From Cyanobacteriota bacterium (GTDB lineage Bacteria; Cyanobacteriota; Cyanobacteriia; PCC-6307; Cyanobiaceae): a stretch of 64,000 nt of DNA. The stretch is from the NCBI GenBank assembly GCA_039799245.1, contig JBDLTB010000015.1:9759-73758 (forward strand), in the 5' to 3' direction. Position 1 is the stretch's first letter. The number at the start of each line of letters is the position of its first letter. Of the stretch, positions 4,792 through 32,544 are shown piece by piece. A program made the position numbers and the translations under genes. The notes under the pieces were generated by a model. The model was not told the DNA's origin. It searched no databases and worked only from the letters and a program-made list of their open reading frames with translations.

Positions 4792-7553
<2,762 letters not shown>

Positions 7554-15109: not shown

Positions 15110-15170
15110 ACCCTCCCGCAGGGACAAATGATGGGAGAAAGAAATATCAAATTAAAATAAATATTTTCGA

Positions 15171-15198
15171 GCAAAAACGGGGAGCCCAAGGCCCCCCG
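15171..15198 (-). terminator. intrinsic terminator/attenuator hairpin after urtA
   Basis: The minus strand reads GGGGGGCC-TTGG-GCTCCCC followed by GTTTTTGC, in an AT-rich spacer. This is typical of a partial terminator after a binding-protein gene. Confidence 0.5.
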
Positions 15199-15228
15199 CC
15201 AATTCAGATCAACGGCCTAGGGCGCTGA

Positions 15229-16524
15229 TCACATCTTGAACTTGCCAGCGTCAGGGCGCTTCTGGGTCCAGTCACAGGTATAGCCCTTGGTCTCAGGCAC
15301 GAACTGGTTCCAGGCCACCGGCTTAACGATCCCCTTGTTCTCAAGGATCTTGAACATGCCATCCTTTTGAACTTCACCAATCAACACCAGTTTGGAGAGG
15401 TGGTGATTGGGTTCCACGGTGACCTTACCCTCTGGGGCATCAAAACTCACACCCACCAAGGCTTCCCGCACCTTGTTGTCGTCAACACTTTTTGCCTTTT
15501 CAGCGGCCTTGGCCCAGAGGTAAACCATGTCGTAAGCAGCTTCAGCCGGGTCGCTGGTGACCCGCTTCTCGCCATACTTGGCCTTGAAGTCTGCGGTGAA
15601 CTTCTTGGAGGCTGGGGTATCTAGGCTCTGGAAGTAATTCCAGGCGGCATAGGTGCCCTCCAGGTACTCAGGACCAATGGCGGCGATCTCCTCTTCGGCG
15701 ATCGAGAAGCTCATGATCGAGTAGCCATTGGCAGGAGTGATGCCGGCAGCCTTCATTTGCTTGAAGAAAGCCACATTGCTGTCGCCGTTGAGGGTGTTAA
15801 CAATCACACCACCCTTGGGCAGGGCCTGCTTAATCTTGGCGATAATCGGAGCCACCTCGGTGTTACCCAAAGGCAAGTAGTCCTCACCAACAACCTTGCC
15901 GCCCTCAGCCTTGAGTTGCTCCTTCATGATTGTATTCGCAGTGCGCGGATACACATAGTCGGAACCGACCAGGAAGAAGTCTTTGCCCTTGTTCTTAAGC
16001 AGCCACTGCACCGCAGGCTCTGCCTGTTGGTTGGGGGCAGCTCCGCTGTAGAAGATGTTCTTGGAACACTCCTGGCCTTCGTACTGAATCGGATAGAAGA
16101 GGAAGTGATCCTTGGCTTCAAACACCGGCAACATCGCCTTGCGGCTGGCGGAGGTCCAACCACCGAAGACCACGGCCACCTTGTCTTGGTCAATCAACTT
16201 CTTGGATTTTTCCGCGAAGGTGGGCCAATCAGAGGCACCGTCCTCCTCCACGGGAACAATTTTGAGCCGCTTGCCATCTACCAGCACACCACCGGCCTTG
16301 TTGATCTCATCAATGGCCATCAACTCCGCTTCAGCCACGGTGTTTTCAGAGATCGCCATGGTGCCACTGCGGGAATGGAGGATGCCCACCTTCACTTCGC
16401 CGTCGAAGGCACCGCCCTCACTCTTTTTCTCACCGCCACAGGCCACCAGGGATAGGGAAGCCGCCAGGGCGGTGGCTCCGCTCAGGAGGCGAAATGAAGT
16501 TTTCTGCAAAGGAGCGGGCACCAT
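15229..16524 (-). CDS. urtA: urea ABC transporter substrate-binding protein UrtA
   Basis: Amide/urea-binding LivK-like protein with lipoprotein signal ...ASLSLVACGG. ATG at 16524 is preceded by GGAGG 8 nt upstream. Confidence 0.9.
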   Translation of the reverse strand: MVPAPLQKTSFRLLSGATALAASLSLVACGGEKKSEGGAFDGEVKVGILHSRSGTMAISENTVAEAELMAIDEINKAGGVLVDGKRLKIVPVEEDGASDWPTFAEKSKKLIDQDKVAVVFGGWTSASRKAMLPVFEAKDHFLFYPIQYEGQECSKNIFYSGAAPNQQAEPAVQWLLKNKGKDFFLVGSDYVYPRTANTIMKEQLKAEGGKVVGEDYLPLGNTEVAPIIAKIKQALPKGGVIVNTLNGDSNVAFFKQMKAAGITPANGYSIMSFSIAEEEIAAIGPEYLEGTYAAWNYFQSLDTPASKKFTADFKAKYGEKRVTSDPAEAAYDMVYLWAKAAEKAKSVDDNKVREALVGVSFDAPEGKVTVEPNHHLSKLVLIGEVQKDGMFKILENKGIVKPVAWNQFVPETKGYTCDWTQKRPDAGKFKM

Positions 16525-16597
16525 GAACAAAATCCTCCGGATGTAGATCCGCTTCGCAGCGGTGGGGGGACCGTATGGGCGAACTGGCCTGGCTTTA

Positions 16598-16611
16598 GTA
16601 GCAGAACTAAC
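16598..16611 (-). promoter_or_regulatory. candidate NtcA box for urtA (GTT-N8-TAC on the minus strand)
   Basis: GTTAGTTCTGCTAC is one mismatch from GTA-N8-TAC. A TAN3T element (TACGGT) begins 23 nt downstream, i.e. 22 nt of spacer. The box overlaps the ureG stop codon. Confidence 0.35.
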
Positions 16612-17218
16612 AGTTGGAAGCGTTTGGTAGCTGTTGCAACAAAAACTGCTCCACCTGATCTACACCTTCGCCGCTGCGCAGGTTGGTGAAGCACCAGGGC
16701 CGCTCCCCCCGCATGCGCTTGGTGTCGCGCTCCATCACCGCCAAGCTCGCCCCCACGAAGGGAGCCAAATCGATCTTGTTAATCACCAACAAATCGGAAC
16801 GGGTGATGCCCGGCCCCCCCTTGCGGGGAATCTTGTCGCCGGCGGCCACATCGATCACATAGATGCAGAGGTCCACCAGCTCAGGGCTAAAGCTGGCGGC
16901 CAGGTTGTCGCCACCGCTCTCCACCAGTACCAGGTCGAGGTCTGGGAAGGCCAGCTCCAGCTCCTCCACCGCCGCCCGGTTGATCGAGCAGTCTTCGCGG
17001 ATGGCGGTGTGGGGACAGCCGCCGGTTTCCACCCCCCGGATCCGCTCCGGAGCCAGGGCGCCCACACGGGTGAGGAACTGGGCATCCTCCTGGGTATAAA
17101 TGTCGTTAGTAACCACCGCCAACTGCAGGCGGTCGCGCAGCCGGCGGCAGAGCACCTCCACCAGGGCGGTTTTGCCGGAACCCACGGGCCCGGCCACCCC
17201 TAAGCGCAGCCGACTCAT
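16607..17218 (-). CDS. ureG: urease accessory GTPase UreG
   Basis: P-loop [10 protein letters not shown] plus CPHTAIRED and ESGGDNL motifs. ATGA overlap with the upstream ABC substrate-binding gene. Confidence 0.95.
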
Positions 17219-18228
17219 CCCACCACTTTGTTGGCTTCCTTGAGCAACGCCTCCGGCAGGGTTACACCAAGCGCCTTGGCGGTGGTTTTACTGAGCAGCA
17301 ATTCGGTTTTAGTAAGCGGTTCAAAGGCCAACTTCGCCGGCGATTCACCCTTCAGCACCCGCACCGCCAGCTCCCCAGCGGCATAGCCATCGTCGTAATA
17401 GCTCCAGCCAATCACCCCCAGGCAGCCGGGCAAATCGATGTCTGGGGGATCAACGGAAAACACCGGGATTTTGCGCTCCAGGCCCACCTTGCAGATGGAA
17501 CCAAAGGCCTGGATGGTGGCGTAATCACCGATTTTGACAAAGGCACCCACCTTTTTCTCCGCCAGGGCCTGGGCCGCCTGCAACACCTCACCAGAATTAG
17601 CCACCGCCTGCTCTTCCACCCCAATGCCCCGCTGGGCAGCCTCTTGCTTGAGCAGCTTTGCTTCGAATTCGGAGTTGGGCTCGCCTGGGTTATAGATGAG
17701 GCCCACGGTTTTGAGGCCGGGATCCAACTGGCGGGCCAGGTCGAGTTCCTTACCCACCGGGTTTGTGCCCACGGTGCCCACCACATTGGCCCGGTGTTGA
17801 CCAACGCCGCCGGGGGGGGTGCCAGCGCCAGCCCCCCAGGGGTTAGAGCAATAGCAAAACACCACTGGCAGGGAGGCGGGGGCCGCCTGCATCGCCGCCT
17901 GCAACGGCGGCGTGCCGATCGCCAGAATCATCGACACGTCATCGCCAACAAATTGCTTAACCACGAGGCTGGTGTTGGGCAGTTCACCGGCGGCGTCTTT
18001 TTGGAGGAAATTGACGGTTTTGCCCTGGGCGTAACCGGCCTTAGCTAAGGCCGCCACAAAGCCCTGGCGCACGGCATTTGGCGGGGCCGCATCCACAAAC
18101 TGGAGCATGCCAATGGTGGGCCCCTTCACCCGTTTGGCCCCACCGAATTTGCCGCAGGCGGCCAGCACCAGGCTGCTGCCAAGCCCTGCGCTCACCAAAC
18201 CAAGGAAGCTGCGGCGGGGCAGGGCCAT
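17215..18228 (-). CDS. ABC transporter substrate-binding protein (COG2984 / PF04392, TrpXYZ-type family)
   Basis: Twin-arginine/lipobox leader [11 protein letters not shown]...LAAC. Overall pattern [11 protein letters not shown]...GTPP...VVGT...VGLIYNPGE...VD is typical of this family. An alternative TTG start lies at 18237. Confidence 0.8.
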
Positions 18229-18233
18229 TGAAA

Positions 18234-19028
18234 TCAAGATTGCGATGGCGGCACTTTGGCAGAGCCATAGAGCGACCTCAAGTAATCAGCAGTGAGCCCC
18301 TGGCGTTCGGGCCCTGCCCAATCCCGCAGCAGCTGGCCGTCCTGCAGCATCACCAACCGGTCCCCATGGCCCAGGGCCTGGTCGAGGTTGTGGGTCACCA
18401 TCAGGGCCGTACTGCCCAGTTCCCGCACCAGGCGATCGGTGAGGGCCATCACCGTGGCTTCCGCCTTGGGATCCAGGGCAGCGGTGTGCTCATCAAGTAA
18501 AAGCAGCTGCGGTTCCCCCAGGGTGGCCATTACCAGGCTGATCGTTTGCCGTTGGCCACCGGAGAGTTGACCCACCGGCGTATCAATGCGATCGGCCAAG
18601 GGCAAGCCCAGGTTTTCCAGTAGCGCCCGATAGCGGCGGCGGTCGGCAGCACTGGGGTGCAGCCCCAGCAGCCCGCGCCAGCCAAACGGTGAACGGCGGC
18701 GCCGTTCCGCCAGGCGCAGGTTTTCAGCAATGGTGAGCCCCGGGGCGGTGCCATCGAGGGGGTTTTGCATCACCCGGCCGATCCAGCGGGCCCGGCGGTG
18801 GTCTGGCTGCTGCCCCAGGGCCCGGCCCTCCAGCTCGATGCGCCCCTGCTGGGCCCGAAGGGTGCCAGCCACCAGGTTGAGCAGGGTCGATTTACCAGAG
18901 CCATTGCTGCCGATCACCACTAAAAACTGACCGCTGGGGCAACTCAGCTCAAAGTTGCTAAACAGCTGGCGCCAACCGCCGCCGGGTTGGCTGTGGCCCC
19001 AGCCCAGGCCGCTCACCTGCAGGCTCAT
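18234..19028 (-). CDS. ABC transporter ATP-binding protein (COG1101-like)
   Basis: Walker A GSNGSGKST, signature LSGGQRQ and Walker B LLLLDEHTAALD. ATGA overlap with the permease gene. Confidence 0.85.
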   Translation of the reverse strand: MSLQVSGLGWGHSQPGGGWRQLFSNFELSCPSGQFLVVIGSNGSGKSTLLNLVAGTLRAQQGRIELEGRALGQQPDHRRARWIGRVMQNPLDGTAPGLTIAENLRLAERRRRSPFGWRGLLGLHPSAADRRRYRALLENLGLPLADRIDTPVGQLSGGQRQTISLVMATLGEPQLLLLDEHTAALDPKAEATVMALTDRLVRELGSTALMVTHNLDQALGHGDRLVMLQDGQLLRDWAGPERQGLTADYLRSLYGSAKVPPSQS

Positions 19029-19909
19029 GGGCTGTTACCGCCATCGGAAACCCCCGGCAGCCGCAGGCGCCCCAGGGCCAGGGCCGCCAGCAGCAACAGG
19101 GCAGTTACCAACTTGAGGTCCACCGGCTCCAGCCCCAACTGCAGGGCCACGGCGATCATCAGCCGGAACAGGATCGAACCCAGCACCACCGCCAGCAGCG
19201 CCATCGGAATCGTGCGGGGCCGCAGCACCGATTCACCAACGATCACCGCACCGAGGCCAAGGATCAAGGAGCCGATGCCCATGGTTACGTCGGCGAAACC
19301 CTGGTATAGCCCCACCAGGGCACCGGCCAGGGCCACCAGGGCATTGCCGGCGGCGATACCAAGGGTGAGGCCGGTGCGGCCACTGATGCCATTGGCCCGG
19401 GCCATGGTGGGGTTATTGCCCAGGGCCCGCAGGGCCAGGCCCAGGTCGGTGGAAAGCAACAGCGCCAGCAGGCCAATCAAGCCAGCCACCACCAGGGTGA
19501 GGGCAATGGCCCAATCGCCATCGGAACCTGTGCCGAAATCAGGCAGGGGCCCCAAGCCCAGGTTCAGGTCGGTGAGAGGAATGTTGGAGCGACCCATCAA
19601 CCGCAGGGTTATCGAATAAAGGCCTGTGGTGGTGAGGATGCCAGCAAACAGATCATTCACCCCCAGGCGGGTGTGAATCAAGGCAGTTACACAACCCGCC
19701 AAGCCCCCAAGGATCACCGCCGCCAGCAGGCCGAGGCTCGGGGCCACGCCATTGCTTATCAGCATCGCCGCGGTGCCGCCGCCCAGGGCGAAGGAACCAT
19801 CCACGGTGATGTCGGCGAAATTAAGCACCCGCAGGGTGAGATAAACGCCCAGGGCTAGGCCGGCATAGGCCAGACCCTGGTCGTAGGCACCGAGCCATAG
19901 AGAAAGCAT
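19025..19909 (-). CDS. ABC transporter permease (COG4120-like)
   Basis: 294-aa polytopic protein. First gene of the permease-ATPase-SBP-ureG string. Confidence 0.8.
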   Translation of the reverse strand: MLSLWLGAYDQGLAYAGLALGVYLTLRVLNFADITVDGSFALGGGTAAMLISNGVAPSLGLLAAVILGGLAGCVTALIHTRLGVNDLFAGILTTTGLYSITLRLMGRSNIPLTDLNLGLGPLPDFGTGSDGDWAIALTLVVAGLIGLLALLLSTDLGLALRALGNNPTMARANGISGRTGLTLGIAAGNALVALAGALVGLYQGFADVTMGIGSLILGLGAVIVGESVLRPRTIPMALLAVVLGSILFRLMIAVALQLGLEPVDLKLVTALLLLAALALGRLRLPGVSDGGNSP

Positions 19910-20040: not shown

Positions 20041-20766
20041 GTGACCTTGCCCTCCATGATCGCCATGGGCCTGGAGCCCGGGGTGGCCAATGGCACCAAC
20101 CGGCTGGCGGCCGTGGCAGGGCTGGCCACCGCCACCTGGCGCTTCCAGCAGGCGGGGGCAATTCCCTGGCGGCTCACGCTGCTGGCCACGGTGCCCATGC
20201 TGATCGGCGCCACCGTTGGCTCCCTGGGGGCCACCGCCGTGGGGGACCAGTGGATCAACTTGGCGATCGCCGTGTCGTTGTTATTTGTGCTGGTGACGCT
20301 GGTCAGCCAGCCGGGGCGCCTGCTCAAAGACAGCGAAGTGGCGCTGGAGGACCTGCGCCTAAGCCCACTCTTCTACTTATTGATGGGCTTCACCGGCCTC
20401 TGGGCCGGCTTCATCTCCCTGGGCTCCGGGGTGATGACCCTGCTGGTGCTGGTGCTAGCTGGAAAGATTCCGCTTAAAACCGCCAACATCCTCAAGTGTT
20501 TCGTGCGGCTTAGTTCCAGCCTGATTGCCCTGCTGGTGTTTGGCCTGCGCGGTGAAATCAACTGGCTCTGGGCCCTACCCCTGGCCCTGGCCAGCATGGT
20601 GGGCGCCAACCTGGCCGCCAAGCTGGCCCTGGGCCCCCAGGCCACCCAACTGATCTTTCGCTTTTTATTGGTGGTGGTGGGCCTCGAGGTGGCGGCCTTC
20701 ATTTGGCGGCTGGGGCTAGGAAATGCCGCCCTGACTTGGCTTCAGCACGGGCCCTTGGTCAGCTGA
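20041..20766 (+). CDS. TauE/SafE (TSUP, DUF81) family membrane transporter
   Basis: Multi-TM protein with the repeated G-rich TSUP pattern. The conserved first TM (LLLLISCGLLGGFINTIAASGATVTLP) is encoded in frame upstream of the first canonical start (see findings). Confidence 0.75.
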   Translation: MTLPSMIAMGLEPGVANGTNRLAAVAGLATATWRFQQAGAIPWRLTLLATVPMLIGATVGSLGATAVGDQWINLAIAVSLLFVLVTLVSQPGRLLKDSEVALEDLRLSPLFYLLMGFTGLWAGFISLGSGVMTLLVLVLAGKIPLKTANILKCFVRLSSSLIALLVFGLRGEINWLWALPLALASMVGANLAAKLALGPQATQLIFRFLLVVVGLEVAAFIWRLGLGNAALTWLQHGPLVS

Positions 20767-20769
20767 AGT

Positions 20770-21459
20770 TCAACTGCGAAACAGGCGCGAATACAAGCTG
20801 CCATGCTGCAGCTGGGCCAACCCCGCCCCCACGGCGCCACTCCAGAGCTGGCGCGGATCAGCCCCCACCAACTGCTCCGCCCGCCGCCGCAGCACTGGCG
20901 CCAGCTCCAGTTGCAAGCGTTGGCCAGTGGTGGCCCCCAGGGGCACGAGCCGCACCGCCGCACTCAACTGGTTGGCCAGCCAGCCATATAGATAAGCCTC
21001 CAACAATTCCAACTGGGGCAACTCCAGGCAGTGGCCAGCCCAGGCCCAGGCCGCCGGCCAGCCCAGGTCACAAACCCCGCCGGGCAGGGGCCAGCCCAGC
21101 TCCGCCAAGAGCTGCAGCAGCGAGCGGCCCATCTGGCGCTGTTGGGCCCGCAGTTCCGGCGCCTCCCGCTGGGCCAGCAACCAGCCATCCAGGTCGCGCA
21201 GCTGCGCTTCGCCGGTACCACCGGAATCCGCCTGCCAGGCCCCAAGCGCCAGACCCAGGGGCCCCAGAGCCGCCGCCTCCATCGCCACCGCCCCCCTCTC
21301 CAGTTCAGCTTGCAGCCAAGCCTTCAGGGGGCCAGGGCCAGCGATGCTGCCCTGTTGCACCAGCACCTCGAGCCCCTCCGAATAGCTGAAGGCCCCCACC
21401 GGCAGGGCCGGACTCACCAGTTGCAACAGATGCAGGCGCTGCAGCTGGGGGCCGCTCAC
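20770..21459 (-). CDS. ureF: urease accessory protein UreF
   Basis: LLQLVSPALPVGAFSYSEGLE N-terminal UreF motif. GTGA overlap with ureE. Confidence 0.85.
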   Translation of the reverse strand: MSGPQLQRLHLLQLVSPALPVGAFSYSEGLEVLVQQGSIAGPGPLKAWLQAELERGAVAMEAAALGPLGLALGAWQADSGGTGEAQLRDLDGWLLAQREAPELRAQQRQMGRSLLQLLAELGWPLPGGVCDLGWPAAWAWAGHCLELPQLELLEAYLYGWLANQLSAAVRLVPLGATTGQRLQLELAPVLRRRAEQLVGADPRQLWSGAVGAGLAQLQHGSLYSRLFRS

Positions 21460-21923
21460 GGGTGATGCCCCCCATAGGCCCCCGCCTCCGGCTGGAAGGG
21501 GGCCTCCAGGGTTTCAACCCCTAGGCCCCGATGGCGCAGCAGATCGGCCAGCACGCTGTCGGCCAGCAGGCGCAGCTCGCCGCAGTGCAACTCCAGGGCC
21601 ACATGGCGATTGCCCAGGTGATAAGCCGCCTGCAACAGCTCCAGGGGCTCCCCAGCGGTGACCCGCAGCAAGCTCTCCGGCGCCGCCTGCACCAGCACCA
21701 CAGGCAAGCCGTCTGCCATCGCCAGCCATTCCCCGGGCCGCAGGGCCGCCCCCCGGGGCAACTGCAACAGCAACGGCTGGCCGCAGGCGCTATGGCGCCG
21801 GCCCCGTAACACCGTGCGTTCGGCCGCCGTCAATGGCAGGCAGAGGCTGGGGCCAAGCTGAGGGGCTGGGGCCGCCAACCGCCGCTCGAGCACCAGTGGT
21901 GCCAACTTCCCATCCGCCATCAA
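21456..21923 (-). CDS. ureE: urease accessory protein UreE
   Basis: Position between ureF and the divergent ureD, UreE-like size, GNRH motif (AYHLGNRHVALE) and His-containing C-terminus. TTG at 21923 and ATG at 21920. Confidence 0.8.
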   Translation of the reverse strand: MMADGKLAPLVLERRLAAPAPQLGPSLCLPLTAAERTVLRGRRHSACGQPLLLQLPRGAALRPGEWLAMADGLPVVLVQAAPESLLRVTAGEPLELLQAAYHLGNRHVALELHCGELRLLADSVLADLLRHRGLGVETLEAPFQPEAGAYGGHHP

Positions 21924-21975: not shown

Positions 21976-21989
21976 GTGATGGTTGCTAC
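21976..21989. promoter_or_regulatory. NtcA-like palindrome GTG-N8-TAC in the ureE/ureD divergent spacer
   Basis: gtgatggttgctac. No convincing -10 element at the canonical spacing in either direction. Confidence 0.25.
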
Positions 21990-22023
21990 CAAGTTTCAGG
22001 GGCCAGGGGAGAAGCATCCCCCC

Positions 22024-22887
22024 ATGGTCAATGCATCCCCCTGGCAGGGCAGGGCTGAACTGAGCTTTGCCCTAGGTTCCGCTGGCACCACTGGTTTCCA
22101 AGGGGGCAGCACGGCCCCCCTGCGGCTGCAGCGCAGTTTCTGCCGGGGCGATGGCCGCTGCGAGCTGCCATTGCTGCACACCGCCGGCGGCCTAGTGGGG
22201 GGCGATGAGCTCTGGGTGGAGGCAAAACTGGCGGCGGGTAGCCGTGCCCTAATTACCACCGTGGCGGCCCAGAAGGTGTATGGCACCAGGGGCCGTTCCC
22301 GCCAGCAACCCCAGGGCCGCTGGGCCCGCCAACAGCTGCACTTTCAGCTGGAAACAGAGGCAGACCTCGAATGGCTCCCCCAGGAAACCGTGGTGTTTAG
22401 CGGGGGGTTGCTGGAGCAACACTGCCGGGTGCAACTGGCGGCCGATGCCCACTGGCTCGGCGCTGAAGTGGTGCGGCTGGGACGCACGGCCAGCGGTGAA
22501 AGCCTTGGCTGCGGCCAATGGCGCAGCCACTTGGAAATCCAGAGGCAGGGCCAGTGGGAGCTGGTGGACCGGCTGGAACTGGGGGGCGAAGCCCTAACGG
22601 CGCCCCACGGCATGGACGGCCAGCCGGTGTTTGGCAGCCTCGTTTGGGCCAGCCCGGGGGCCGTGGCCGCCGAATTGCTGGAGCTCTGCCGCGCCGACAG
22701 CGCTGGCTTGCCCGGCAGCCTGGCCTGCGGCGCCCTCGAGCGGGGCTTGATCGCCCGTTACCGGGGGCCCTCCAGCCAGGCCGCCCGCTTCTGGTTCACC
22801 CGCATCTGGGCCCGGATCCGCCAGCAGCGGGGACTAGCGGCGGCGGAACTACCGCGGGTTTGGCCCTTCCAGGAGGCTCCCCTTTAA
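22024..22887 (+). CDS. ureD: urease accessory protein UreD (UreH)
   Basis: WQGRAELSF...PLRLQRSF...LLHTAGGLVGGD UreD pattern. ATG 22024 is preferred; the ORF opens at GTG 21976. Confidence 0.85.
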   Translation: MVNASPWQGRAELSFALGSAGTTGFQGGSTAPLRLQRSFCRGDGRCELPLLHTAGGLVGGDELWVEAKLAAGSRALITTVAAQKVYGTRGRSRQQPQGRWARQQLHFQLETEADLEWLPQETVVFSGGLLEQHCRVQLAADAHWLGAEVVRLGRTASGESLGCGQWRSHLEIQRQGQWELVDRLELGGEALTAPHGMDGQPVFGSLVWASPGAVAAELLELCRADSAGLPGSLACGALERGLIARYRGPSSQAARFWFTRIWARIRQQRGLAAAELPRVWPFQEAPL

Positions 22888-24332
22888 AGCGCCAGGGCAC
22901 GAATGGCCCGGCGGCGTACTTCGATCACCTCACCAATGTCCTGGGCAACGCGGGGCTGCACTTCAAGCAGATGGTGCAGGGTGTCAGCATCAATCAGCAA
23001 CACACTGAGATCCTCGGTTGCCAATACCATCGTATCGATACATTGCTCGGTAAGTAATGATGCATTCTCACCAAAGTACTCCCCGGCCGCAAGCACCCCA
23101 ATCGTAAACATTCGCCCCTCAGCATCTATCACATTCAAGCTTGCCCGGCCCTCCATAATCACAAATAAGCCAGGCAGACGCTCCCCTTGGCGCAATACCA
23201 ACTCCTGGCCGGCATAGCGCTGCTGTTCACATACAGCCAAGACAGATTCCAACTCAGCAGCGGGCAATGTTGCAAAGCAAGCCACCCGCTGCAACCCCTG
23301 GAGCTGCAAACGCCGCCGCTGTTCACCCGTGGGCCCAGGGGGACGGTGCGCCATCACCTGCTGGATTGGATAGGGCATCGTGAGCCCATGGCGCTTGGCG
23401 GCATACCAGATGCGCAGCTTAAAATCATCAAGCGCATCAAAGGCTTCTTCGATGCCATCTGAATAGAAACGAATCGAATAACTAATCGCCGAATCGCCAT
23501 ACTCATATAGAGACACATCGGGGCGGGGTCGCTCAAGTACGTCATTAATATTAGCCAAGAGATCTCGGATCACCTTAATCACCTTGTTGGGGGGATCATC
23601 GTAGGAGAACGAAAGTAACAGCCGTTCATTGTGCAGCCTGCGCGGCCTGCTGAGATTGGAAAATGTTTCTTTTGCCAATACAGAATTAGGCACCACCGTG
23701 AGGTCTGTAAAGCGGGTAACCAAGTGCACAGAGCGCCAGTTTATCTCCACCACCTTTCCAAATTTATCGCCAATACGAATCCAATCCCCCAGGCTAAATG
23801 GCCGTTCAGATAAAAGCGAAATCCCCGAAAAAATATTACCAAGACTGTCCTGCAGGGCTAGGCCCACCACCAGCGAACCCACCCCCAGGGCAGTGAGCAG
23901 GCCGCCAAGATTGGCGCCCCACACCGAAGACAATACAAAAGCAGATCCGATGCACACCAGCACGAAACGGCCCAGATCCCGCAATATCTGGGGGATTTTG
24001 GCTTGCCAGCCAGCACTGCCAGCCCGCTCAAACAGCAGCACATTCAGCAGCGTTAAGGCTGCATAGATCAAGGTGATCCAAAGGAAGGTTTCCGCCAGCC
24101 GCACAAAGATCGCGCCGGCCGGCCATTGCAACACCTGCCGCAGCAGCACAAAAGCCGCCGCCAGGGGCAGGCTCCCCTGACGCAAAATTGCCAAGGGTTG
24201 AGCCAGGGGTTGTTGACGCCGCTCCAGCCGCAGCTGCAGCTCCCCCAGCAGCAACATCAACAGGGGAAAGCCCAACACCAGGCCCAGGGTCCAGCCGAGG
24301 GCCCAGCCCTGGATCGCTACGCCAGTGGCCAT
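22884..24332 (-). CDS. MscS-family mechanosensitive channel with C-terminal CAP/cNMP-binding-like domain (bCNG-type architecture)
   Basis: MscS TM3/beta-domain core GVGSLVVGLALQDSLGNIFSGISLLSERPFSLGDWIRIGDKFGKVVEINWRSVHL, followed by a CNB-like beta-roll ...GEYFGENASLL.... Low GC. Confidence 0.85.
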   Translation of the reverse strand: MATGVAIQGWALGWTLGLVLGFPLLMLLLGELQLRLERRQQPLAQPLAILRQGSLPLAAAFVLLRQVLQWPAGAIFVRLAETFLWITLIYAALTLLNVLLFERAGSAGWQAKIPQILRDLGRFVLVCIGSAFVLSSVWGANLGGLLTALGVGSLVVGLALQDSLGNIFSGISLLSERPFSLGDWIRIGDKFGKVVEINWRSVHLVTRFTDLTVVPNSVLAKETFSNLSRPRRLHNERLLLSFSYDDPPNKVIKVIRDLLANINDVLERPRPDVSLYEYGDSAISYSIRFYSDGIEEAFDALDDFKLRIWYAAKRHGLTMPYPIQQVMAHRPPGPTGEQRRRLQLQGLQRVACFATLPAAELESVLAVCEQQRYAGQELVLRQGERLPGLFVIMEGRASLNVIDAEGRMFTIGVLAAGEYFGENASLLTEQCIDTMVLATEDLSVLLIDADTLHHLLEVQPRVAQDIGEVIEVRRRAIRALAL

Positions 24333-24334
24333 GG

Positions 24335-26425
24335 CTAACTCACCCGCCAGATCGGCAGTTCAGCACTGCCTTGCTCAGCAACTAGCTCGAAACTGTAGAG
24401 GCCCTGGAGGGCCTCATAAACCGACTGGCTTACATGGATCTGATTCTGACCGGGGGATTCATGGATCTGCTTGGCGATGTTGATTGTTTCCCCCCAAACC
24501 TCGTAATTAAATCTGGTTTTACCCACCACCCCCGCCGAAACTGGCCCACTGTGGATGCCAATATCCAGGCCAAGATCAAGGCCCTCCTTGCGGTTGAAAC
24601 GCCGAATAATATTGATCATCGCCAGGGCAAAATCCACCATCCGCTTGGCGTGGTCTACCCGCGGTATCGACAAACCGCAAACAGCAACATAAATAGAACC
24701 CATACTGCGAATCTTCTCAACGCTAAAGCGCTCAGCCGCCTCATCAAAGGCATCATTCAATTGGTTCAATAGTTGATATGCATGCTCCTCCGAAAGACTG
24801 GCCGAAAGCGAATCAACTCCATCAACATTCACATAAAGCACTGTCACATTTGGAAAACTATCGGAAATATCCTGCTCACCACTCTTGAGCCGCTCCGCCG
24901 CCCCAGGGGGCAAGATCGTGAGCAGCAAGCGATCGTTCTCCTGCATGTGGGCTTGAATTGCCTGTTCTTTTCCATGCAAGGCCTTGGCCATGGCATTGAA
25001 GGATTGGGTGAGCTCCCCAAACTCATCCTGGGAGACCACCGGAATCTGCACCTCACTATTGCCGCGTTCAATCTCGTGGGTTCCGGCAATCAAGCGGCGA
25101 ATCGGCGTAAGAAAAGTTTTAGCCACCGCCCCAGAAACCAGGGTGATCAAAGGCATCATGATCGCCGCGGTTATCAGCATGTTGCGGGTAAGCGTATGCA
25201 TACCACTAAATATTTCAGCCTGGTCAATCTCGACCACTAAAGCCCAGTCAAAATCACCTAACTTAATTGGAGAATAGGCTCCAAGTACAGGCACGCCCCG
25301 ATAGTCGTTATAGGAAGCCAAACCGGATTTGCCAGCCAAGCCCGCTAGGGCTCCCTTTGATTTGACCTGCTGGATAAGAATTGAAGACTGGGCGGATTTA
25401 ATCAGGCCAATCTGCTTAGTAGCCACCCCCTGGGCTTCGAGGGCCTTGTAATAGCCCTTGGGATCCTCGAAGAGGAAACGACTGGAGGAACGCATCCGCT
25501 GGTCTGGCCCCACCAGATAGGTTTCTCCTGACTCACCAAGGCCCACCTGCTGCCAGCGTTTGTCCACATTCATAATCTGATCAATGCGGTGGGAAGGCAC
25601 CTCAAGCACCAACACACCGATAAATTTATCTTTATCAAAAACCGTCGTACTTACAAAGGCAGAGGGCACTCCATAGCCAGGCTTATAGTGTTCAAAGTCT
25701 GTTATACCTACGAAATCTGGATCCCGCGATTGACGGGCCATCTCAAAGGCTTTAGCGAGGGAACTACCCGCAAAGGGACCATCGGCAATGTTGCCACCAA
25801 AATCAATCTTCTTTGCCACTGAATATAAAATATTGCCTTTAGCATCAATCAAATAAAGGTCTGGATAACCAAATTCCTCGGCAATCACCCTAAAGCGCTT
25901 ATGCACGGCCCCATGCAGCTCACTATATTCACTACCATCCCCAGCCTTTAGCAACTGAGCGCGATTTTTGGGGTAGGGATTTGCCACCGTATAGTGGTAA
26001 GTAAGATACTTATCCGCCGCAGAAATGGGCAAATAAGTGGCCAGCGCTGGATCGCCCTCAATATTCTTTTTTAATTTCGGCAGGAAGTCTTTGGCATAGA
26101 AATTCCTCAACTTCTCCGTCTGCTCGGCTGTGATTTGACTGCTGTTTAACCTATTGATTGCCGGTCCAAGGCTATTAATGGCATTCACAGCCATCTGCTG
26201 ATAGCCCAAGGTGAGGGCATGGGCCTTCAAGCCCTTGAAATAGCTCTCGATCGCCTGGGAACGGGAATTGCGCAGGCCGAGCAGCTGGGCATCGGCAGCA
26301 GCCATCAGGGCCTGGCGGCTACTGCTGTAGCTCACAAAACCAGTGAGCAGCAGGGTGAACAAACTCACCGCCAGCACCAGAGCCAGCAGCTTCGATTGGA
26401 TCCCCAGCTTGCTGAAAACAGTCAT
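24335..26425 (-). CDS. membrane sensor protein: extracytoplasmic Cache-like domain - HAMP - class III cyclase-homology domain
   Basis: TM1, an extracytoplasmic region of about 380 aa (GETYLVGPDQ, YNDYRGVPVLGAY...WALVVEIDQAE), TM2, HAMP (PIRRLIAGTHEIERGN...DEFGELTQSFNAMA), then the cyclase-homology domain (VTVLYVNVDG...GIHSGPVSAGVVG...YEVWGETINIA). ATG 26425 is preferred; the ORF opens at 26464. Confidence 0.85.
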   Translation of the reverse strand: MTVFSKLGIQSKLLALVLAVSLFTLLLTGFVSYSSSRQALMAAADAQLLGLRNSRSQAIESYFKGLKAHALTLGYQQMAVNAINSLGPAINRLNSSQITAEQTEKLRNFYAKDFLPKLKKNIEGDPALATYLPISAADKYLTYHYTVANPYPKNRAQLLKAGDGSEYSELHGAVHKRFRVIAEEFGYPDLYLIDAKGNILYSVAKKIDFGGNIADGPFAGSSLAKAFEMARQSRDPDFVGITDFEHYKPGYGVPSAFVSTTVFDKDKFIGVLVLEVPSHRIDQIMNVDKRWQQVGLGESGETYLVGPDQRMRSSSRFLFEDPKGYYKALEAQGVATKQIGLIKSAQSSILIQQVKSKGALAGLAGKSGLASYNDYRGVPVLGAYSPIKLGDFDWALVVEIDQAEIFSGMHTLTRNMLITAAIMMPLITLVSGAVAKTFLTPIRRLIAGTHEIERGNSEVQIPVVSQDEFGELTQSFNAMAKALHGKEQAIQAHMQENDRLLLTILPPGAAERLKSGEQDISDSFPNVTVLYVNVDGVDSLSASLSEEHAYQLLNQLNDAFDEAAERFSVEKIRSMGSIYVAVCGLSIPRVDHAKRMVDFALAMINIIRRFNRKEGLDLGLDIGIHSGPVSAGVVGKTRFNYEVWGETINIAKQIHESPGQNQIHVSQSVYEALQGLYSFELVAEQGSAELPIWRVS

Positions 26426-26504
26426 TGACGAAGGCTCAGCCGAGGGGCGAGGCAATCGGTGCATTCACGCAGGCAGAACCACGCTTCTCGGCAAGCGAGC
26501 TTAA

Positions 26505-26528
26505 CTGAACTGTTCAGCCCGAACGTTC
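26505..26528. promoter_or_regulatory. adjacent palindromes CTGAAC-T-GTTCAG and GAACGTTC in the sensor/ureA divergent spacer
   Basis: Read directly. They are part of a cluster of eight GAAC/GTTC tetramers in 26476..26586. Confidence 0.35.
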
Positions 26529-26587
26529 CGCCTGAACCATCCGGCCCTAACCAGAGCTGGCAAAGTGCCTGTTCCCTGGACTGAACC

Positions 26588-26893
26588 ATGCACCTGTCCC
26601 CCCAGGAGAAAGACAAACTGCTGGTGGTGACCGCTGCCCTTCTGGCGGAGCGCCGCCTGCAGCGGGGCCTAAGGCTCAACCATCCGGAGGCGGTGGCCTG
26701 GCTCAGCTTCCAGATCCTGGAGGGGGCCCGCGATGGCCAAACCGTGGCCGCCCTCATGCAAGCGGGCAGCACCTGGCTGCGGCGCGACCAGGTGATGGAA
26801 GGGGTGCCGGAACTGATCCCAGAAGTTCAGATGGAAGCCACCTTCCCCGATGGCACCAAGCTCGTGACCCTGCACCAACCAATCCGATGCTGA
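26588..26893 (+). CDS. ureA: urease subunit gamma
   Basis: [37 protein letters not shown]... is a canonical UreA sequence. Confidence 0.95.
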
Positions 26894-27195
26894 TCCCAGG
26901 CGAACTATTCCCCGTAGCAGGCAGCATTGAGCTCAATGCTGGCCGCCCGGTAACCCAAATCACTGTGGCCAACAGTGGTGATCGCCCCGTGCAGGTGGGC
27001 TCCCATTTTCATTTCATGGAAGCCAACGCTGCCCTGCTCTTTGACCGGGAGGCCGCCCGGGGCCAGCGGCTAGACATCCCCGCCGGCACCGCCATCCGGT
27101 TTGAACCTGGCGACAGCCGCGAGGTGCAGCTGGTGCCCTTTGCCGGGGCCAGGCGGGTGGTGGGTTTCAACGGCCTAATCAACGGAGAGCTCTGA
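26887..27195 (+). CDS. ureB: urease subunit beta
   Basis: IPGE...[28 protein letters not shown] is a canonical UreB sequence. Confidence 0.95.
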
Positions 27196-28904
27196 TGCCT
27201 TACCAGATGGACCGTCGGGCCTACGCCGAAACCTATGGCCCCACCCGCGGCGATCGCCTGCGCCTGGCCGACACCGAGTTGATCCTGGAGGTGGAAAAAG
27301 ACTTCACCAGCTACGGCGATGAGGTGAAATTCGGCGGCGGCAAGGTGATCCGCGATGGCATGGGCCAAGGGCAAACATCCAGGGCCGCAGGGGCCGTAGA
27401 CACGGTGATCACCAATGCGCTGATCCTCGATTGGTGGGGGATTGTGAAGGCAGACATCGGCCTGCGCGATGGCCGCATCTGGGCCATCGGTAAGGCCGGC
27501 AACCCCGACATCAGCGACAACATCGACGTGCTGATTGGCCCTGGCACCGAGGTGATTGCCGGCGAAGGCCAGATCGTTACCGCCGGTGCCATCGACACCC
27601 ACATCCACTTCATCTGCCCCCAGCAGATCGAAACAGCCCTGGCCTCCGGCGTTACCACCATGCTCGGTGGCGGCACGGGCCCAGCCACTGGCAGCAATGC
27701 CACCACCTGCACCCCGGGGGCCTTCCACCTGGCCCGCATGTTGCAGGCCGCCGATGGCTTTCCGATCAACCTGGGCTTCTTCGGCAAGGGCAACGCCAGC
27801 AGCCCCGAGGCCCTAGCGGAACAGATCCGGGCCGGGGCCTGCGGGCTCAAGTTGCACGAGGACTGGGGCACCACCCCCGCCGCCATCGATTGCTGCCTAG
27901 GGGTAGCTGACCGCTTCGATGTCCAGGTGTGCATCCACACCGACACCCTCAATGAAGCCGGGTTTGTGGAAGACACGATCCGCGCCATTGCCGGGCGCAC
28001 CATCCACACCTTCCATACTGAGGGGGCCGGCGGCGGCCATGCCCCCGACATCATCAAGATCTGCGGGGAAGCGAATGTGCTGCCCAGTTCCACAAACCCC
28101 ACCCGCCCCTACACCCGCAACACCCTGGAGGAACACCTAGACATGTTGATGGTGTGCCATCACCTCGACGCGGGCATTCCCGAGGATGTGGCCTTTGCTG
28201 AATCACGCATTCGCCGCGAAACTATCGCCGCCGAAGACATCCTCCACGACCTCGGGGCCTTCAGCATCATCGCCAGTGATTCCCAGGCCATGGGTCGGGT
28301 GGGGGAAGTGATCACCCGCACCTTCCAAACGGCCCACAAAATGAAAGTGCAACGGGGAGCTTTGCCGGGGGACAGCAGCCGCAACGACAACCAGCGGATC
28401 AAGCGCTACGTGGCCAAATTCACGATCAATCCGGCTATTGCCCATGGCATCGACAGCCAGGTGGGCTCCGTGGAGGTGGGCAAGCTGGCCGACCTGGTGC
28501 TTTGGAAGCCGGGGTTCTTTGGGGTAAAGCCTGAATTGGTAATCAAGGGGGGCATGATCGCCTGGGCCCAGATGGGCGATGCCAATGCCTCGATTCCCAC
28601 CCCCGGCCCGGTGCACGGCCGACCGATGTTTGCTGGCTTTGGCGGCGCCACCGCCCCCAGCCGGCTCAGCTTCGTCTCCCAGGCGGCCCTAGACGCCGAC
28701 CTGCCCCGCCAGCTGGGGCTGCGGAGCCCCTGTGTGCCGGTGCAGAACACCCGCAGCATCGGCAAAACGGCGATGCGCAACAACAGCGCCATGCCAGCCA
28801 TGGAGGTGGATCCGGAAACCTATGAGGTGTATGCCGATGGCGAACTGCTCAGCTGTGAACCAGCCGAGGTGCTACCCATGGCCCAGCGCTACTTTCTGCT
28901 CTAA
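27195..28904 (+). CDS. ureC: urease subunit alpha
   Basis: [35 protein letters not shown] and MVCHHLD Ni-centre motifs. Confidence 0.97.
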
Positions 28905-29158: not shown

Positions 29159-30028
29159 ATGCCAAAATCAATCCATAAAAAAATCAAAGAAGACCCCTAC
29201 GAACCCTCGAACTTGCTGGAGGATCTAGCAGCAAATGATGACAAGCACTCAACAAAACTTGAGCGCAAAATATATGAAAAAGAATTAGCTAAATTACATA
29301 TAGAGCTGGTAAAAATGCAATATTGGGTTAAACATATTGGCTACCGCTTAATTGTTGTGTTTGAAGGCAGAGATGCGGCAGGCAAGGGGGGCACAATCAA
29401 GCGAATAACAGAACCCCTAAACCCCCGCGGTTGCCAAGTAATTGCCCTTGGCACCCCCTCAGACCACCAAAAAACCCAATGGTATTTTCAGCGCTACGTT
29501 GAACACTTTCCTTCGGCTGGTGAAATCATAATTTTCGATCGTAGTTGGTACAATCGAGCCGGCGTAGAGCGGGTGATGGGCTTCTGCAGCGAAGCCCAAA
29601 CCCAAGAGTTTCTCCACTCCTGCCCGGAATTTGAACGGATGCTTGTGCGGGCAGGCATTGTACTAATCAAATATTGGTTTTCCGTTAGCGATGAAGAACA
29701 GGAAATTCGCTTCCAATCACGCATCGACGACCCCACCCGCCGCTGGAAGCTAAGCCCCATGGACCTGGAATCAAGGCGCCGCTGGGTGGAATTTTCAAAG
29801 GCCAAAGATGAAATGTTTGCCCACACAAACATCCCAGAGGCCCCCTGGTTCACCGTGGCAGCCGACGACAAACGCCGGGCAAGGCTCAATTGCATTCATC
29901 ACCTACTAAGCAAAATTCCCTACGAAGACATGACCCCTGAAGCAATTAAGCTTCCCCCTCGCAAAAGCGGTGGTAAATACCAAAGGCCACCGATTAATGA
30001 GCAATTCTTTGTTCCTGAAATCTATTGA
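29159..30028 (+). CDS. ppk2: polyphosphate kinase 2 (single-domain PPK2)
   Basis: VVFEGRDAAGKGGTIKRI (Walker A), QWYFQRY and FDRSWYNRAGVERVMGF lid motif. Markedly low GC. Confidence 0.9.
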   Translation: MPKSIHKKIKEDPYEPSNLLEDLAANDDKHSTKLERKIYEKELAKLHIELVKMQYWVKHIGYRLIVVFEGRDAAGKGGTIKRITEPLNPRGCQVIALGTPSDHQKTQWYFQRYVEHFPSAGEIIIFDRSWYNRAGVERVMGFCSEAQTQEFLHSCPEFERMLVRAGIVLIKYWFSVSDEEQEIRFQSRIDDPTRRWKLSPMDLESRRRWVEFSKAKDEMFAHTNIPEAPWFTVAADDKRRARLNCIHHLLSKIPYEDMTPEAIKLPPRKSGGKYQRPPINEQFFVPEIY

Positions 30029-30152
30029 GGCTCAAATAAGTAGCAGAGGCAACAAAATTACTAGCTCCCAGGGCAAAGCGGGCATTTGGTAGCAATAGCA
30101 ACTCTATAAGGGCCCCCCAATTGCAGACCATTACCCCAGGAACGGGTTGCCC

Positions 30153-31592
30153 ATGTTTGAAAGCTATGCCCCAAACGGCGGTTTCGACGAATACATGAGT
30201 CCCACCCACACCCCCCGCCAGGCAATGGGGAACCTGATGGATCAGTTGGGGGCCCTGGGTCTTCCCCAGCTCAACCGCAACCACCAGGCCGCCGAAAAAC
30301 TCTTAAAGCGCCTAGGGGCCACCTTCCGGTTGAACAGTGGCTCCGAGGGGGCCAGCGAGCGGATTCTTCCCTTTGATCCCCTACCGCGCCTGATCGACCA
30401 TGACGATTGGCAGGTGCTGGAGGCGGGCCTGATCCAACGGCTCGAGGCCATTGATCTGTTCCTCGCCGATGTCTATGGCCCCCAACTCATCCTCAAGGAT
30501 GGGGTGATCCCCGCCGATGAGGTTTTCAGCAGCCATGGCTGGCGGCCGGAAATGGTGGGGGTGCTGCCCCCCCTGGGGCGTTGGTGTCAAATTTCAGGCC
30601 TAGATCTGATCCGCGATGGGGAAGGCACCTGGCGGGTGCTGGAAGACAACCTGCGCTGCCCCTCAGGGGTGGCCTACTTCCTGGAAAACCGCCGGGTGAT
30701 GAAGCAACTATTTGGGGGGCTGTTCAGCAGCCAACGGGTCACCCCCATCGATGACTACGCCTCCCAGTTGCTCCAAACCCTCCAGGACATGGCCCCCTGG
30801 AGTGGCAGCCCAAGGGTGGTGCTGCTAACCCCCGGGGTGCACAACAGCGCCTACTTCGAGCACAGCTACCTGGCGCGGCTGATGGGCATCCAGCTGGTGG
30901 AGGGCCAAGACCTGGTGTGCAGCGAAGGCAAGGTATGGATGCGCAGCACCACCGGCCTAGAGCGGGTCGATGTGATCTACCGCCGCATCGACGACGATTT
31001 CCTTGATCCCGAATGCTTCCGTGCCGACTCGATGTTGGGGGTGCGCGGCCTGATGGAGTGCTACCGCCAGGGCTCCATTGCCATTGCCAATGCCCCTGGC
31101 ACCGGCGTGGCCGACGACAAGCTGATTTATGCCTATGTGCCGGAAATGATCCGCTACTACCTACAACAGGAGCCGATCATTGAAAACGTCACCACCTACC
31201 TCTGCTCCCGCCCCAACGACCTCACCTACGTGCTGGAGCATCTGCCATCCCTGGTGGTGAAAGCGGTATCTGAGGCTGGCGGCTACGGGATGTTGATTGG
31301 CCCCCATGCCAGTGCCCAGGAATGTGCCGAGTTCCGCGAAAGGATCAAGGCTGATCCCCGCAATTACATCGCCCAACCAACCCTGCAGTTATCGACGGTG
31401 CCCTCCTTGAGCAATGGGGAGCTCTACCCCTGCCATGTGGACCTGCGGCCCTACATCCTGCGGGGTCGCCAGAGCTGGGTAACCCCCGGCGGTCTCACCC
31501 GGGTGGCACTCAAACGTGGTTCCCTGGTGGTGAACTCCTCCCAGGGCGGCGGTAGCAAAGACACCTGGGTGGTCTCATGCTCAGCCGTGTAG
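30153..31592 (+). CDS. circularly permuted ATP-grasp type 2 protein (COG2308, DUF404/DUF407)
   Basis: About 480 aa with the family-typical N-terminus (YDEY-like ...GFDEYMSP), VLEDNLRCPSGVAY, IANAPGTGVADDK and VVKAVSEAGGYGM motifs. Heads the COG2308-COG2307-COG1305 gene order. Confidence 0.85.
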   Translation: MFESYAPNGGFDEYMSPTHTPRQAMGNLMDQLGALGLPQLNRNHQAAEKLLKRLGATFRLNSGSEGASERILPFDPLPRLIDHDDWQVLEAGLIQRLEAIDLFLADVYGPQLILKDGVIPADEVFSSHGWRPEMVGVLPPLGRWCQISGLDLIRDGEGTWRVLEDNLRCPSGVAYFLENRRVMKQLFGGLFSSQRVTPIDDYASQLLQTLQDMAPWSGSPRVVLLTPGVHNSAYFEHSYLARLMGIQLVEGQDLVCSEGKVWMRSTTGLERVDVIYRRIDDDFLDPECFRADSMLGVRGLMECYRQGSIAIANAPGTGVADDKLIYAYVPEMIRYYLQQEPIIENVTTYLCSRPNDLTYVLEHLPSLVVKAVSEAGGYGMLIGPHASAQECAEFRERIKADPRNYIAQPTLQLSTVPSLSNGELYPCHVDLRPYILRGRQSWVTPGGLTRVALKRGSLVVNSSQGGGSKDTWVVSCSAV

Positions 31593-32539
31593 CCGAACAG
31601 CTGTACTGGATCTTCCGTTACGTGGAAAGGGCCGAAAATCTGGCGCGCTTCCTGGAGGTGAGCCAGTCCATGGCCCTAGACACCCCCATGGAAGGAAACG
31701 ATGTATGGCTGCCCCTGATTGATGTGTGCGCCGACCGCAGTCGTTTTGAGGAATTACATCCCGGGGGCGGCGCCAAGGAGGTGGGGGAATATCTATTGCG
31801 GGAGGCAGACAACCCCAATGCAATTCGCAATTGCCTAGCCATAGCCCGGGAAAATGCCCGCCAGATCCGCGAGGTGATTCCCAACGAATTTTTTGAAGAC
31901 CTCAATGCCCTTTACCTGGACCTGGAGGATGGCGAGCCCTTCTGGCAACTGCCAGAACAGGAACAACTCCAGCAGATCCGCAGCCGCTGCCAACAGCTCT
32001 ATGGCATCGCCGATTCCACCATGCGGCGGGATCTCAGCTGGCAATTTGCAAACCTAGGGCGGCTGATTGAACGGGCTGATAAAACCGCCAGAATTCTTGA
32101 TGTGAAGTACTTCTTGTTGCTGCCCAGCCTCGAAGATGTGGGGGGCGCCCTCGATGAACTCCAGTGGATCGCCCTGTTGCGTTGTGCCAGTGCCTATCAG
32201 GTGTTCCGCCAGCACACCCAACAACCGATCAGCCCCAGTGGGGTGGCTGCTTTCCTGCTACTGGACCCGGCCTTCCCCCGCTCGGTGCGCTACTGCCTCA
32301 ACGGCGTGGCAGAGGCCCTCAATGGCATCGACCAACGACCCCTAACGGAAGGGGCCGACGACCTGGCCCGCACCATGGGACTGCTCCAGGCCCACTGGAA
32401 CTACAGCCGGGTGGAAGAAGTGGTTAACCGGGGACTGCATGAGGTGATCGACACCCTGCAACAACAGTTAAACCAACTGCATCGTCTGATTGAAGAGCGA
32501 TACTTCATTAGTTCCCACGGTTCCATGGAAGCGATCTAG
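31577..32539 (+). CDS. alpha-E domain protein (COG2307, DUF403)
   Basis: Characteristic N-terminus MLSRVAEQLYWIFRYVERAENLARF. Overlaps the ATP-grasp gene by 16 nt. Confidence 0.8.
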   Translation: MLSRVAEQLYWIFRYVERAENLARFLEVSQSMALDTPMEGNDVWLPLIDVCADRSRFEELHPGGGAKEVGEYLLREADNPNAIRNCLAIARENARQIREVIPNEFFEDLNALYLDLEDGEPFWQLPEQEQLQQIRSRCQQLYGIADSTMRRDLSWQFANLGRLIERADKTARILDVKYFLLLPSLEDVGGALDELQWIALLRCASAYQVFRQHTQQPISPSGVAAFLLLDPAFPRSVRYCLNGVAEALNGIDQRPLTEGADDLARTMGLLQAHWNYSRVEEVVNRGLHEVIDTLQQQLNQLHRLIEERYFISSHGSMEAI

Positions 32540-32544
32540 GCGCC

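Follow-up and report, generated by a model that had tools for sequence, protein, structure and literature searches.

A pair of genes between ureD and ureA, in a 64,000-nt stretch of contig JBDLTB010000015.1 from a cyanobacterium of the Cyanobiaceae (the whole stretch is called the window below), encodes a membrane receptor with a cyclase-homology domain (CHD) and an MscS-family channel with a C-terminal domain resembling cyclic-nucleotide-binding (CNB) domains. We consider it fairly probable that this pair is an acquired, self-contained receptor-channel cassette, that its position beside the urease genes is incidental and that the CHD controls the co-expressed channel. Both genes are on the minus strand. 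The receptor occupies a 709-aa open reading frame (ORF) at 24,335-26,464, with a dCache_1-HAMP-CHD architecture, and the channel a 482-aa ORF at 22,884-24,332. Only 2 nt (24,333-24,334) separate the receptor stop codon from the channel ATG, a spacing that fits a tightly coupled operon with predicted translational coupling. At the other end, the channel stop codon overlaps that of the convergent ureD gene (21,976-22,887, plus strand; UreD Pfam match with E 2e-50) in the tetranucleotide TTAA (22,884-22,887), which, on these coordinates, leaves no room for a terminator between the two genes. To the right of the receptor gene, ureA follows directly (26,588-26,893) as the first gene of ureA-ureB-ureC (26,588-28,904), all on the plus strand. 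This layout had been described in a first-pass annotation of the window: ORF calls and Pfam agree with its two co-directional minus-strand genes filling the gap, and both the 2-nt spacing and the stop overlap are exact. The receptor start is likely Met14 (26,425), based on homolog N-termini and a 696-aa database entry (P0144), which gives a protein of 696 aa. Given this start, the divergent spacer to ureA measures 162 nt, as first annotated; from 26,464 it measures 123 nt.

A metagenome scan yielded 80 further loci. The receptor gene lies immediately upstream of the channel gene and on the same strand in 52 of the 57 loci with enough sequence, from Cyanobium to Leptolyngbya, and the same order, with differing neighbours, recurs in seven annotated contexts that range from freshwater Synechococcus to Leptolyngbya ohadii. 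In about 43 of 58 related pairs the two genes lie at most 13 nt apart; most gaps fall between -4 and +13 nt, and 20 pairs overlap by 4 nt. No conserved third gene was found beside the cassette, the biggest neighbour cluster (8 loci) consisting of generic ABC ATPases. Among about 85 loci, ure genes are found near the pair only in the lineage of the window, i.e. in the window itself, in L005 and in the metagenome contigs L047 and L002; L047 is also the only locus of the metagenome scan with ure genes nearby. The pair is thus best explained as a signalling cassette of two genes that stands on its own and has spread widely among cyanobacteria, and its place beside urease looks incidental.

The origin of the arrangement was analysed with a UreD-based scan of species-representative genomes, which returned 36 loci. 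In the closest relative, L004 (95.5-96.5% nucleotide identity, colinear over 8.9 kb to the left and 8.0 kb to the right), ureD lies 105 nt from ureA with no pair in between. The alignment of the two genomes breaks at 22,886|22,887 and 26,504|26,505, so that the inserted cassette (22,887-26,504) comprises 3,618 nt in the window versus 19 nt in L004. Identical junctions with the pair are present in L005, a metagenome-assembled genome (MAG) labelled S. lacustris, as well as in L002 and L047; the shared junctions suggest one insertion event, followed by presence/absence polymorphism among close relatives. The last codons of the channel's variable C-terminal tail may extend into the former host spacer; the tail itself ends in the complement of the region that holds the ureD stop codon. 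No homolog with more than 62% identity was found outside the own lineage among 5.8 billion proteins. The GC content of the pair is 51-56%, with a GC content at third codon positions (GC3) of 0.57-0.62, compared to 63-71% GC in the ure genes and to 61.7% GC and a mean GC3 of 0.727 (sd 0.081) in the window overall. Because of the empty site in L004, the atypical composition and the lack of closer homologs elsewhere, the comparison indicates that the pair was acquired by the window lineage, as the first-pass annotation had proposed. Its description of a low-GC block stands for the contrast with the ure genes and not for the pair being exceptional, as urtABCDE, PPK2 and two further ORFs of the window are equally low. 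Since the urtABCDE-like genes are low in GC beside the ure genes, low GC by itself is no marker of foreign DNA here. Hallmarks of mobile elements were also missing, as had been noted before: the two genes fill the insert and leave no integrase or transposase, a tRNA scan of the window was empty, and the sole repeat at the two edges is the 5-nt AAGCG.

We also attempted to date the pair against its flanks by synonymous divergence. Divergence at four-fold sites is lower in the pair (11% vs 16.5-19.6% in the flanks, p = 0.005 to 1e-5), yet the Nei-Gojobori synonymous divergence (dS) of 0.13-0.18 is similar to that of ureC, and the dating was dropped. Some of the names attached to the compared sequences are questionable. 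The label of L005 is doubtful given the window GC of 61.7%, as a GC content of 52-53% has been published for S. lacustris (PMC9361551), and four Cyanobium-like contigs of the CALR... MAG series (L009, L012, L013 and L032) carry the implausible names Tabrizicola, Bordetella parapertussis, Rhizobium and Bradyrhizobium.

The junction itself is variable. While ureD and ureA are contiguous (<150 nt) in 9 relatives, which is the arrangement that the first-pass annotation had given for picocyanobacterial urease clusters, the slot between them holds 1.0-5.9 kb of other genes in 17 relatives, including genes for Coq4-like, beta-lactamase-family/DUF3471, DUF2207, LemA, TauE, MFS_2, Zn-ADH and TetR proteins. 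Within the fetched flank, ureA was missing in 6 relatives; one of them, L008, has a SulP gene after ureD. The ureD-ureA junction is, by this synteny, a cargo slot in freshwater picocyanobacteria. A 26-bp dyad, GTTCAG-N3-GAACGTTC-N3-CTGAAC, is located at 26,512-26,537 (48-87 nt from the receptor start) within the 83 nt upstream of ureA (26,505-26,587, plus strand) that the window has in common with the empty site. Its core, GAACGTTCC-NN-CTGAAC, is kept about 55-70 nt 5' of the ureA ATG in about 25 Cyanobium/Synechococcus relatives and is followed by a CTGCCAGAGTG-like box. This element is probably the operator of a ureABC regulator and is proposed here as a candidate for it; an NtcA box (GTAN8TAC) is found nowhere in the window, and scans for sigma-70 promoters and terminators between 21.8 and 27 kb gave matches no commoner than in shuffled sequence. 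That the conserved element falls in these 83 nt, which the empty site has as well, implies that ureABC kept its own ancestral control region and that cargo inserts just upstream of it. The earlier idea that the insertion had relocated the ureABC promoter into the shared spacer is therefore not upheld.

These results bear on the possibility that the pair acts as a urease-linked valve, sensing urea, ammonium or pH, coming under common control with ureABC through the shared spacer, and releasing solutes or ions during urea hydrolysis. The pair does adjoin the ure genes physically, the divergent spacer of 123-162 nt holds the conserved ureA dyad, and two or more sublineages have retained the arrangement under purifying selection. 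Nevertheless, we regard such a function as very improbable, as the closest relative has an intact ureD-ureA junction without the pair, the related cassettes outside the window lineage have no ure genes nearby, and residues of the receptor's periplasmic domain are invariant across the family whatever the gene context. Moreover, the ureA element is older than the insertion, and what other genomes carry in the slot is unrelated cargo. The first-pass annotation had suggested that sensor, channel and urease form a functional unit; this proposal is not supported by the distribution of the cassette, and other freshwater Synechococcus have homologous pairs at loci unrelated to this one.

For both proteins, the domain assignment made at first reading agrees with the Pfam architectures and with NCBIfam. 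The receptor consists of dCache_1, HAMP and Guanylate_cyc. Its dCache_1 match is below the Pfam cut-off (37.5 vs 45 bits); the AlphaFold model of the periplasmic domain (predicted local distance difference test score 92.7) shows a dCache fold, i.e. a double PAS-like domain between two transmembrane helices. The best Foldseek matches of this model were PctA, DctB, CtaA and Tlp3 (E ~5e-9, 11-16% identity), and no ligand class was identified in this search. In the model, about 160 helical residues precede the first PAS-like module (receptor residues ~40-200, window ~25,865-26,347). This helical N-terminal part is much larger than the single long helix of a typical dCache domain and contains many aromatic and acidic residues that are invariant in the family.

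The CHD has the fold of class III cyclases (PF00211, E 3.8e-38) and aligns to AC8/AC9/Rv1625c-type structures. Alignment to the C1 and C2 domains of mammalian AC8/AC9 and to 120 homologs revealed that N546 and S590 stand in place of the two metal-binding Asp residues, so that the domain is similar to the mammalian C2 domain in its metal sites. R586 replaces the substrate-binding Lys and E655 the substrate-binding Asp, both non-canonical and charge-conserving. The transition-state Asn is kept (N662), while Q666, next to K665, takes the place of the corresponding Arg. Hence, one of six canonical class III catalytic residues is left, a degeneration that, like that of the ligand-binding motif of the channel, had been missed in the first reading of the sequence. 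The second metal site is Ser in 99 of 121 family sequences. Among 63 paired cyclases, only 19 have both Asp residues and 35 have three or fewer canonical residues, whereas five distant members of the cassette family (L076, L086, L088, L098 and L113) retain all six. Throughout the family, an acidic residue stands two positions beyond the first metal site (Glu in 97 of 121 sequences, D548 in the window); it covaries with the loss of the second Asp. A CHD dimer without the metal Asp residues is the counterpart of the inactive C2 homodimer (PMC4174876), and the CHD of the window is probably a pseudo-cyclase when homodimeric. A second CHD or CNB protein that could serve as a partner for the degenerate domains was not found in the window.

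The channel comprises MS_channel_2nd, MS_channel_3rd and cNMP_binding domains. Its MscS part is clearly recognisable (PF00924, E 6.6e-19; PF21082, E 3e-9), and residues 109-330 align to YnaI/MscS structures. The C-terminal domain has a CNB fold (PF00027, E 5.1e-13) and matches the CNB domains of PKG, CRP and SthK. The phosphate-binding cassette (PBC) of this domain, FGENASLLTEQCIDTMVLA (aa 420-438), retains its Gly and Glu and has no canonical Arg: in the segment GENASLLTEQCIDTMVLA, the Arg of PKG aligns to Ile432, at a site occupied by Ile or Cys. The canonical form in MscS-linked channels is GEIALLTGGPRTATVRA, with P-R-[ST]-A being typical of the subfamily that Kannan et al. list for MscS-linked CNB domains (GE...GGPRTATVRA; PMC2246266). 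At this site the window channel has C-I-D-T, the family as a whole favours P-S-P-[IV] or I-[AS]-[ED]-T as its consensus, and P-R-[ST]-A occurs in none of about 180 relatives. As the PBC lacks this canonical motif, binding of cyclic nucleotides by the window channel should not be assumed from the fold.

These substitutions are relevant for the classical relay proposed for the cyclic nucleotide-gated channels of bacteria (bCNG channels), in which the receptor would be an active adenylyl or other nucleotidyl cyclase whose cyclic nucleotide gates or modulates the CNB domain of the channel. Architecture and tight operon fit are what such a relay would look like, the changes from Lys to Arg, Asp to Glu and Arg to Lys (the latter one position off) conserve charge, Gly and Glu of the PBC are kept, and fully canonical members exist among the distant cassettes. 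However, both metal Asp residues and all but one of the canonical residues are gone, homodimers without metal Asp are inactive (PMC4174876) and the PBC is without its Arg. In addition, the first metal position varies between N, H, T and D within the clade of the window, suggesting that there is no catalytic constraint on it. For the window lineage, we therefore consider the classical relay unlikely.

Degeneration of the motifs does not coincide with decay of the genes. Compared to L005, the receptor has a ratio of nonsynonymous to synonymous divergence (dN/dS) of 0.10, with 0.057 in the CHD, and the channel one of 0.049, with 0.053 in its CNB-like part; these values are similar to the 0.061 of ureC. 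The CHD is the best-conserved domain of the receptor across the clade, with 65-71% identity versus 54-58% for the Cache region. From these values it follows that both genes are under strong purifying selection and, as far as substitution patterns reveal, functional in place. It could be argued that the pair is a neutral or decaying hitch-hiker, i.e. non-functional DNA carried with the ure cluster, as its catalytic and binding motifs are degenerate, its presence is polymorphic and the receptor gene is split in the relative L042. Yet the ORFs are intact in four independent sequences, dN/dS is as low as in ureC and the CHD, of all domains, is conserved most, so that we give this explanation hardly any credence. 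In L042, a metagenome contig, the receptor gene (5,214-6,997) was called as two ORFs, one for Cache-HAMP (419 aa) and one for the CHD (135 aa), which reflects either a pseudogene or an assembly frameshift.

In the mechanism that we propose for the cassette, a small extracellular ligand would bind to the Cache domain, the signal would run via HAMP to the CHD dimer, and the CHD would control the co-translated channel through the C-terminal domain of the latter. Because both metal Asp residues and three more catalytic residues are replaced and the channel is without the phosphate-binding Arg, the relay in the window lineage may well be something other than canonical cAMP synthesis, a view that we hold tentatively and with somewhat less than even confidence. 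Control by direct contact between CHD and channel, or by nucleotide binding without turnover, would be more likely than control by cAMP synthesis. In its most specific form, the proposal would be a ligand-gated MscS system without a second messenger, in which the pseudo-enzyme CHD directly binds the non-cNMP-binding CNB-homology domain of the channel (cNMP, cyclic nucleoside monophosphate). Most members of the cassette family in picocyanobacteria would then share this mode; it is a speculative version, and we think it rather unlikely to be correct in this form.

Several points weigh against the reading that we favour. The acidic residue at position +2 might rescue metal binding, so that residual or altered cyclase activity is conceivable. 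The five related cassettes with fully canonical cyclases imply that cAMP signalling was probably ancestral, and it may persist. Channels paired with these canonical cyclases likewise lack the Arg of the PBC, which weakens the argument for a joint degeneration of the two sites. We know of no precedent for direct contact between a CHD and a channel. With regard to the locus, the divergent spacer common to the receptor gene and ureA could impose common regulation, and the similar dS of pair and ureC leaves gain followed by loss in L004 indistinguishable from spread by recombination.

The logic of the two genes, a cyclase-family protein followed by a transmembrane protein with a CNB domain, also resembles that of Pycsar, in which a cyclase-family enzyme and a cNMP-binding membrane effector collapse the membrane upon phage infection. 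The location in a variable, low-GC slot and weak matches to PycC profiles would agree with an anti-phage module of this kind. However, PADLOC yielded weak and incomplete matches (E 1.5e-6 over 67 aa; for the effector, E 0.006), the catalytic Asp residues are missing, an extracytoplasmic Cache-HAMP input is foreign to Pycsar and the would-be effector is a complete MscS channel. Furthermore, some Cyanobium-type cassettes have common neighbours: L043 and L044 share an identical channel protein and identical gyrA-crtL-fibrillin genes upstream in two contigs, and an Exo_endo_phos gene lies downstream of the cassette in L043, L053 and L055. Membership in Pycsar was rejected, as PADLOC gave no full-length match to a PycC or CNB-effector profile, and an anti-phage role of this type appears most improbable.

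The wider surroundings of the cassette show further irregularities. The urtABCDE-like genes for a urea ABC transporter (11,435-16,530) have a GC content of 53-56% and a GC3 of 0.58-0.71, well under the adjacent ure genes. ureG (16,607-17,218) is split from ureF/ureE (20,770-21,923) by a three-gene ABC transporter (17,215-19,909; ABC_sub_bind, ATPase and BPD_transp_2 permease) and a TauE-family gene (20,041-20,766); TauE genes are also among the ureD/ureA cargo of other genomes. Just 3' of ureC, PPK2 (29,159-30,028) is the gene with the lowest GC content in the window (47.6%, GC3 0.50), and its divergence from L005 at four-fold sites (39%) is far above that of neighbouring genes. In three distant cassettes (L078, L102 and L105), a divergently oriented PPK2 homolog also lies close upstream of the receptor gene, an association that may be a weak linkage or chance. 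After PPK2 follows an operon for a circularly permuted ATP-grasp protein, an Alpha-E protein and a transglutaminase-like protein (30,147-33,414), and the ATP-grasp gene is located 3' of ureC in many relatives as well.

Membrane-bound class III adenylyl cyclases that carry a periplasmic sensor and a HAMP domain include the mycobacterial HAMP cyclases and the cyanobacterial CyaA-type enzymes. The receptor shares with them the order of transmembrane helix, extracytoplasmic sensor, transmembrane helix, HAMP and CHD as well as the strong Pfam match of the CHD, and differs in N546 and S590 and in the exchanges of Lys to Arg, Asp to Glu and Arg to Gln. KCNH (EAG/hERG) channels carry a CNB-homology domain, a CNB fold in which the phosphate-binding Arg was lost and which works without cNMP. 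The likeness to the window channel is an analogy only, as these voltage-gated K+ channels are eukaryotic and are related to the pair neither by evolution nor by operon structure. Closest to the channel are the bCNG or 'Channel_Bact' CNB subfamily members (Kannan et al. 2007, PMC2246266), which are mostly cyanobacterial and in which a C-terminal CNB fold comes after the pore and beta domains of MscS; here the difference is the PBC of the window channel without canonical P-R-[ST]-A. The bCNG channels are bacterial cyclic nucleotide-gated homologues of MscS (Caldwell et al. 2010 and Malcolm et al. 2012, as cited in PMC13591265), and according to this 2026 review the role of bCNG-like channels and their use of cyclic nucleotides are unknown. 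Adjacency of cyclase and channel genes in picocyanobacterial islands is mentioned by Doré et al. (2020, PMC7522525) for Syn_GI122 of marine Synechococcus/Cyanobium. Their report concerns marine strains and other loci, and neither analyses catalytic or binding residues nor places the genes near urease. The statement of the first-pass annotation that such a sensor-valve module had not been described thus needs correction: the cassette type is already known, and what is new are degenerate cyclase and CNB sites under strong constraint.

As a urease story, the insertion carries little weight and is a fairly ordinary event of the flexible genome, which shows that the ureD-ureA junction is a cargo slot and that ureABC has a conserved promoter element of its own. 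Its relevance lies with the channels, as bCNG-like channels are almost always co-encoded with a Cache-HAMP-CHD receptor, and in most picocyanobacterial cassettes the CHD is without catalytic residues and yet the most constrained domain. This leads to the testable hypothesis of receptor-controlled MscS gating, with or without cAMP, for which natural variants spanning six to one of the six canonical residues are at hand. If true, messenger-free gating would provide a physiological rationale for the enigmatic bCNG-like channels.

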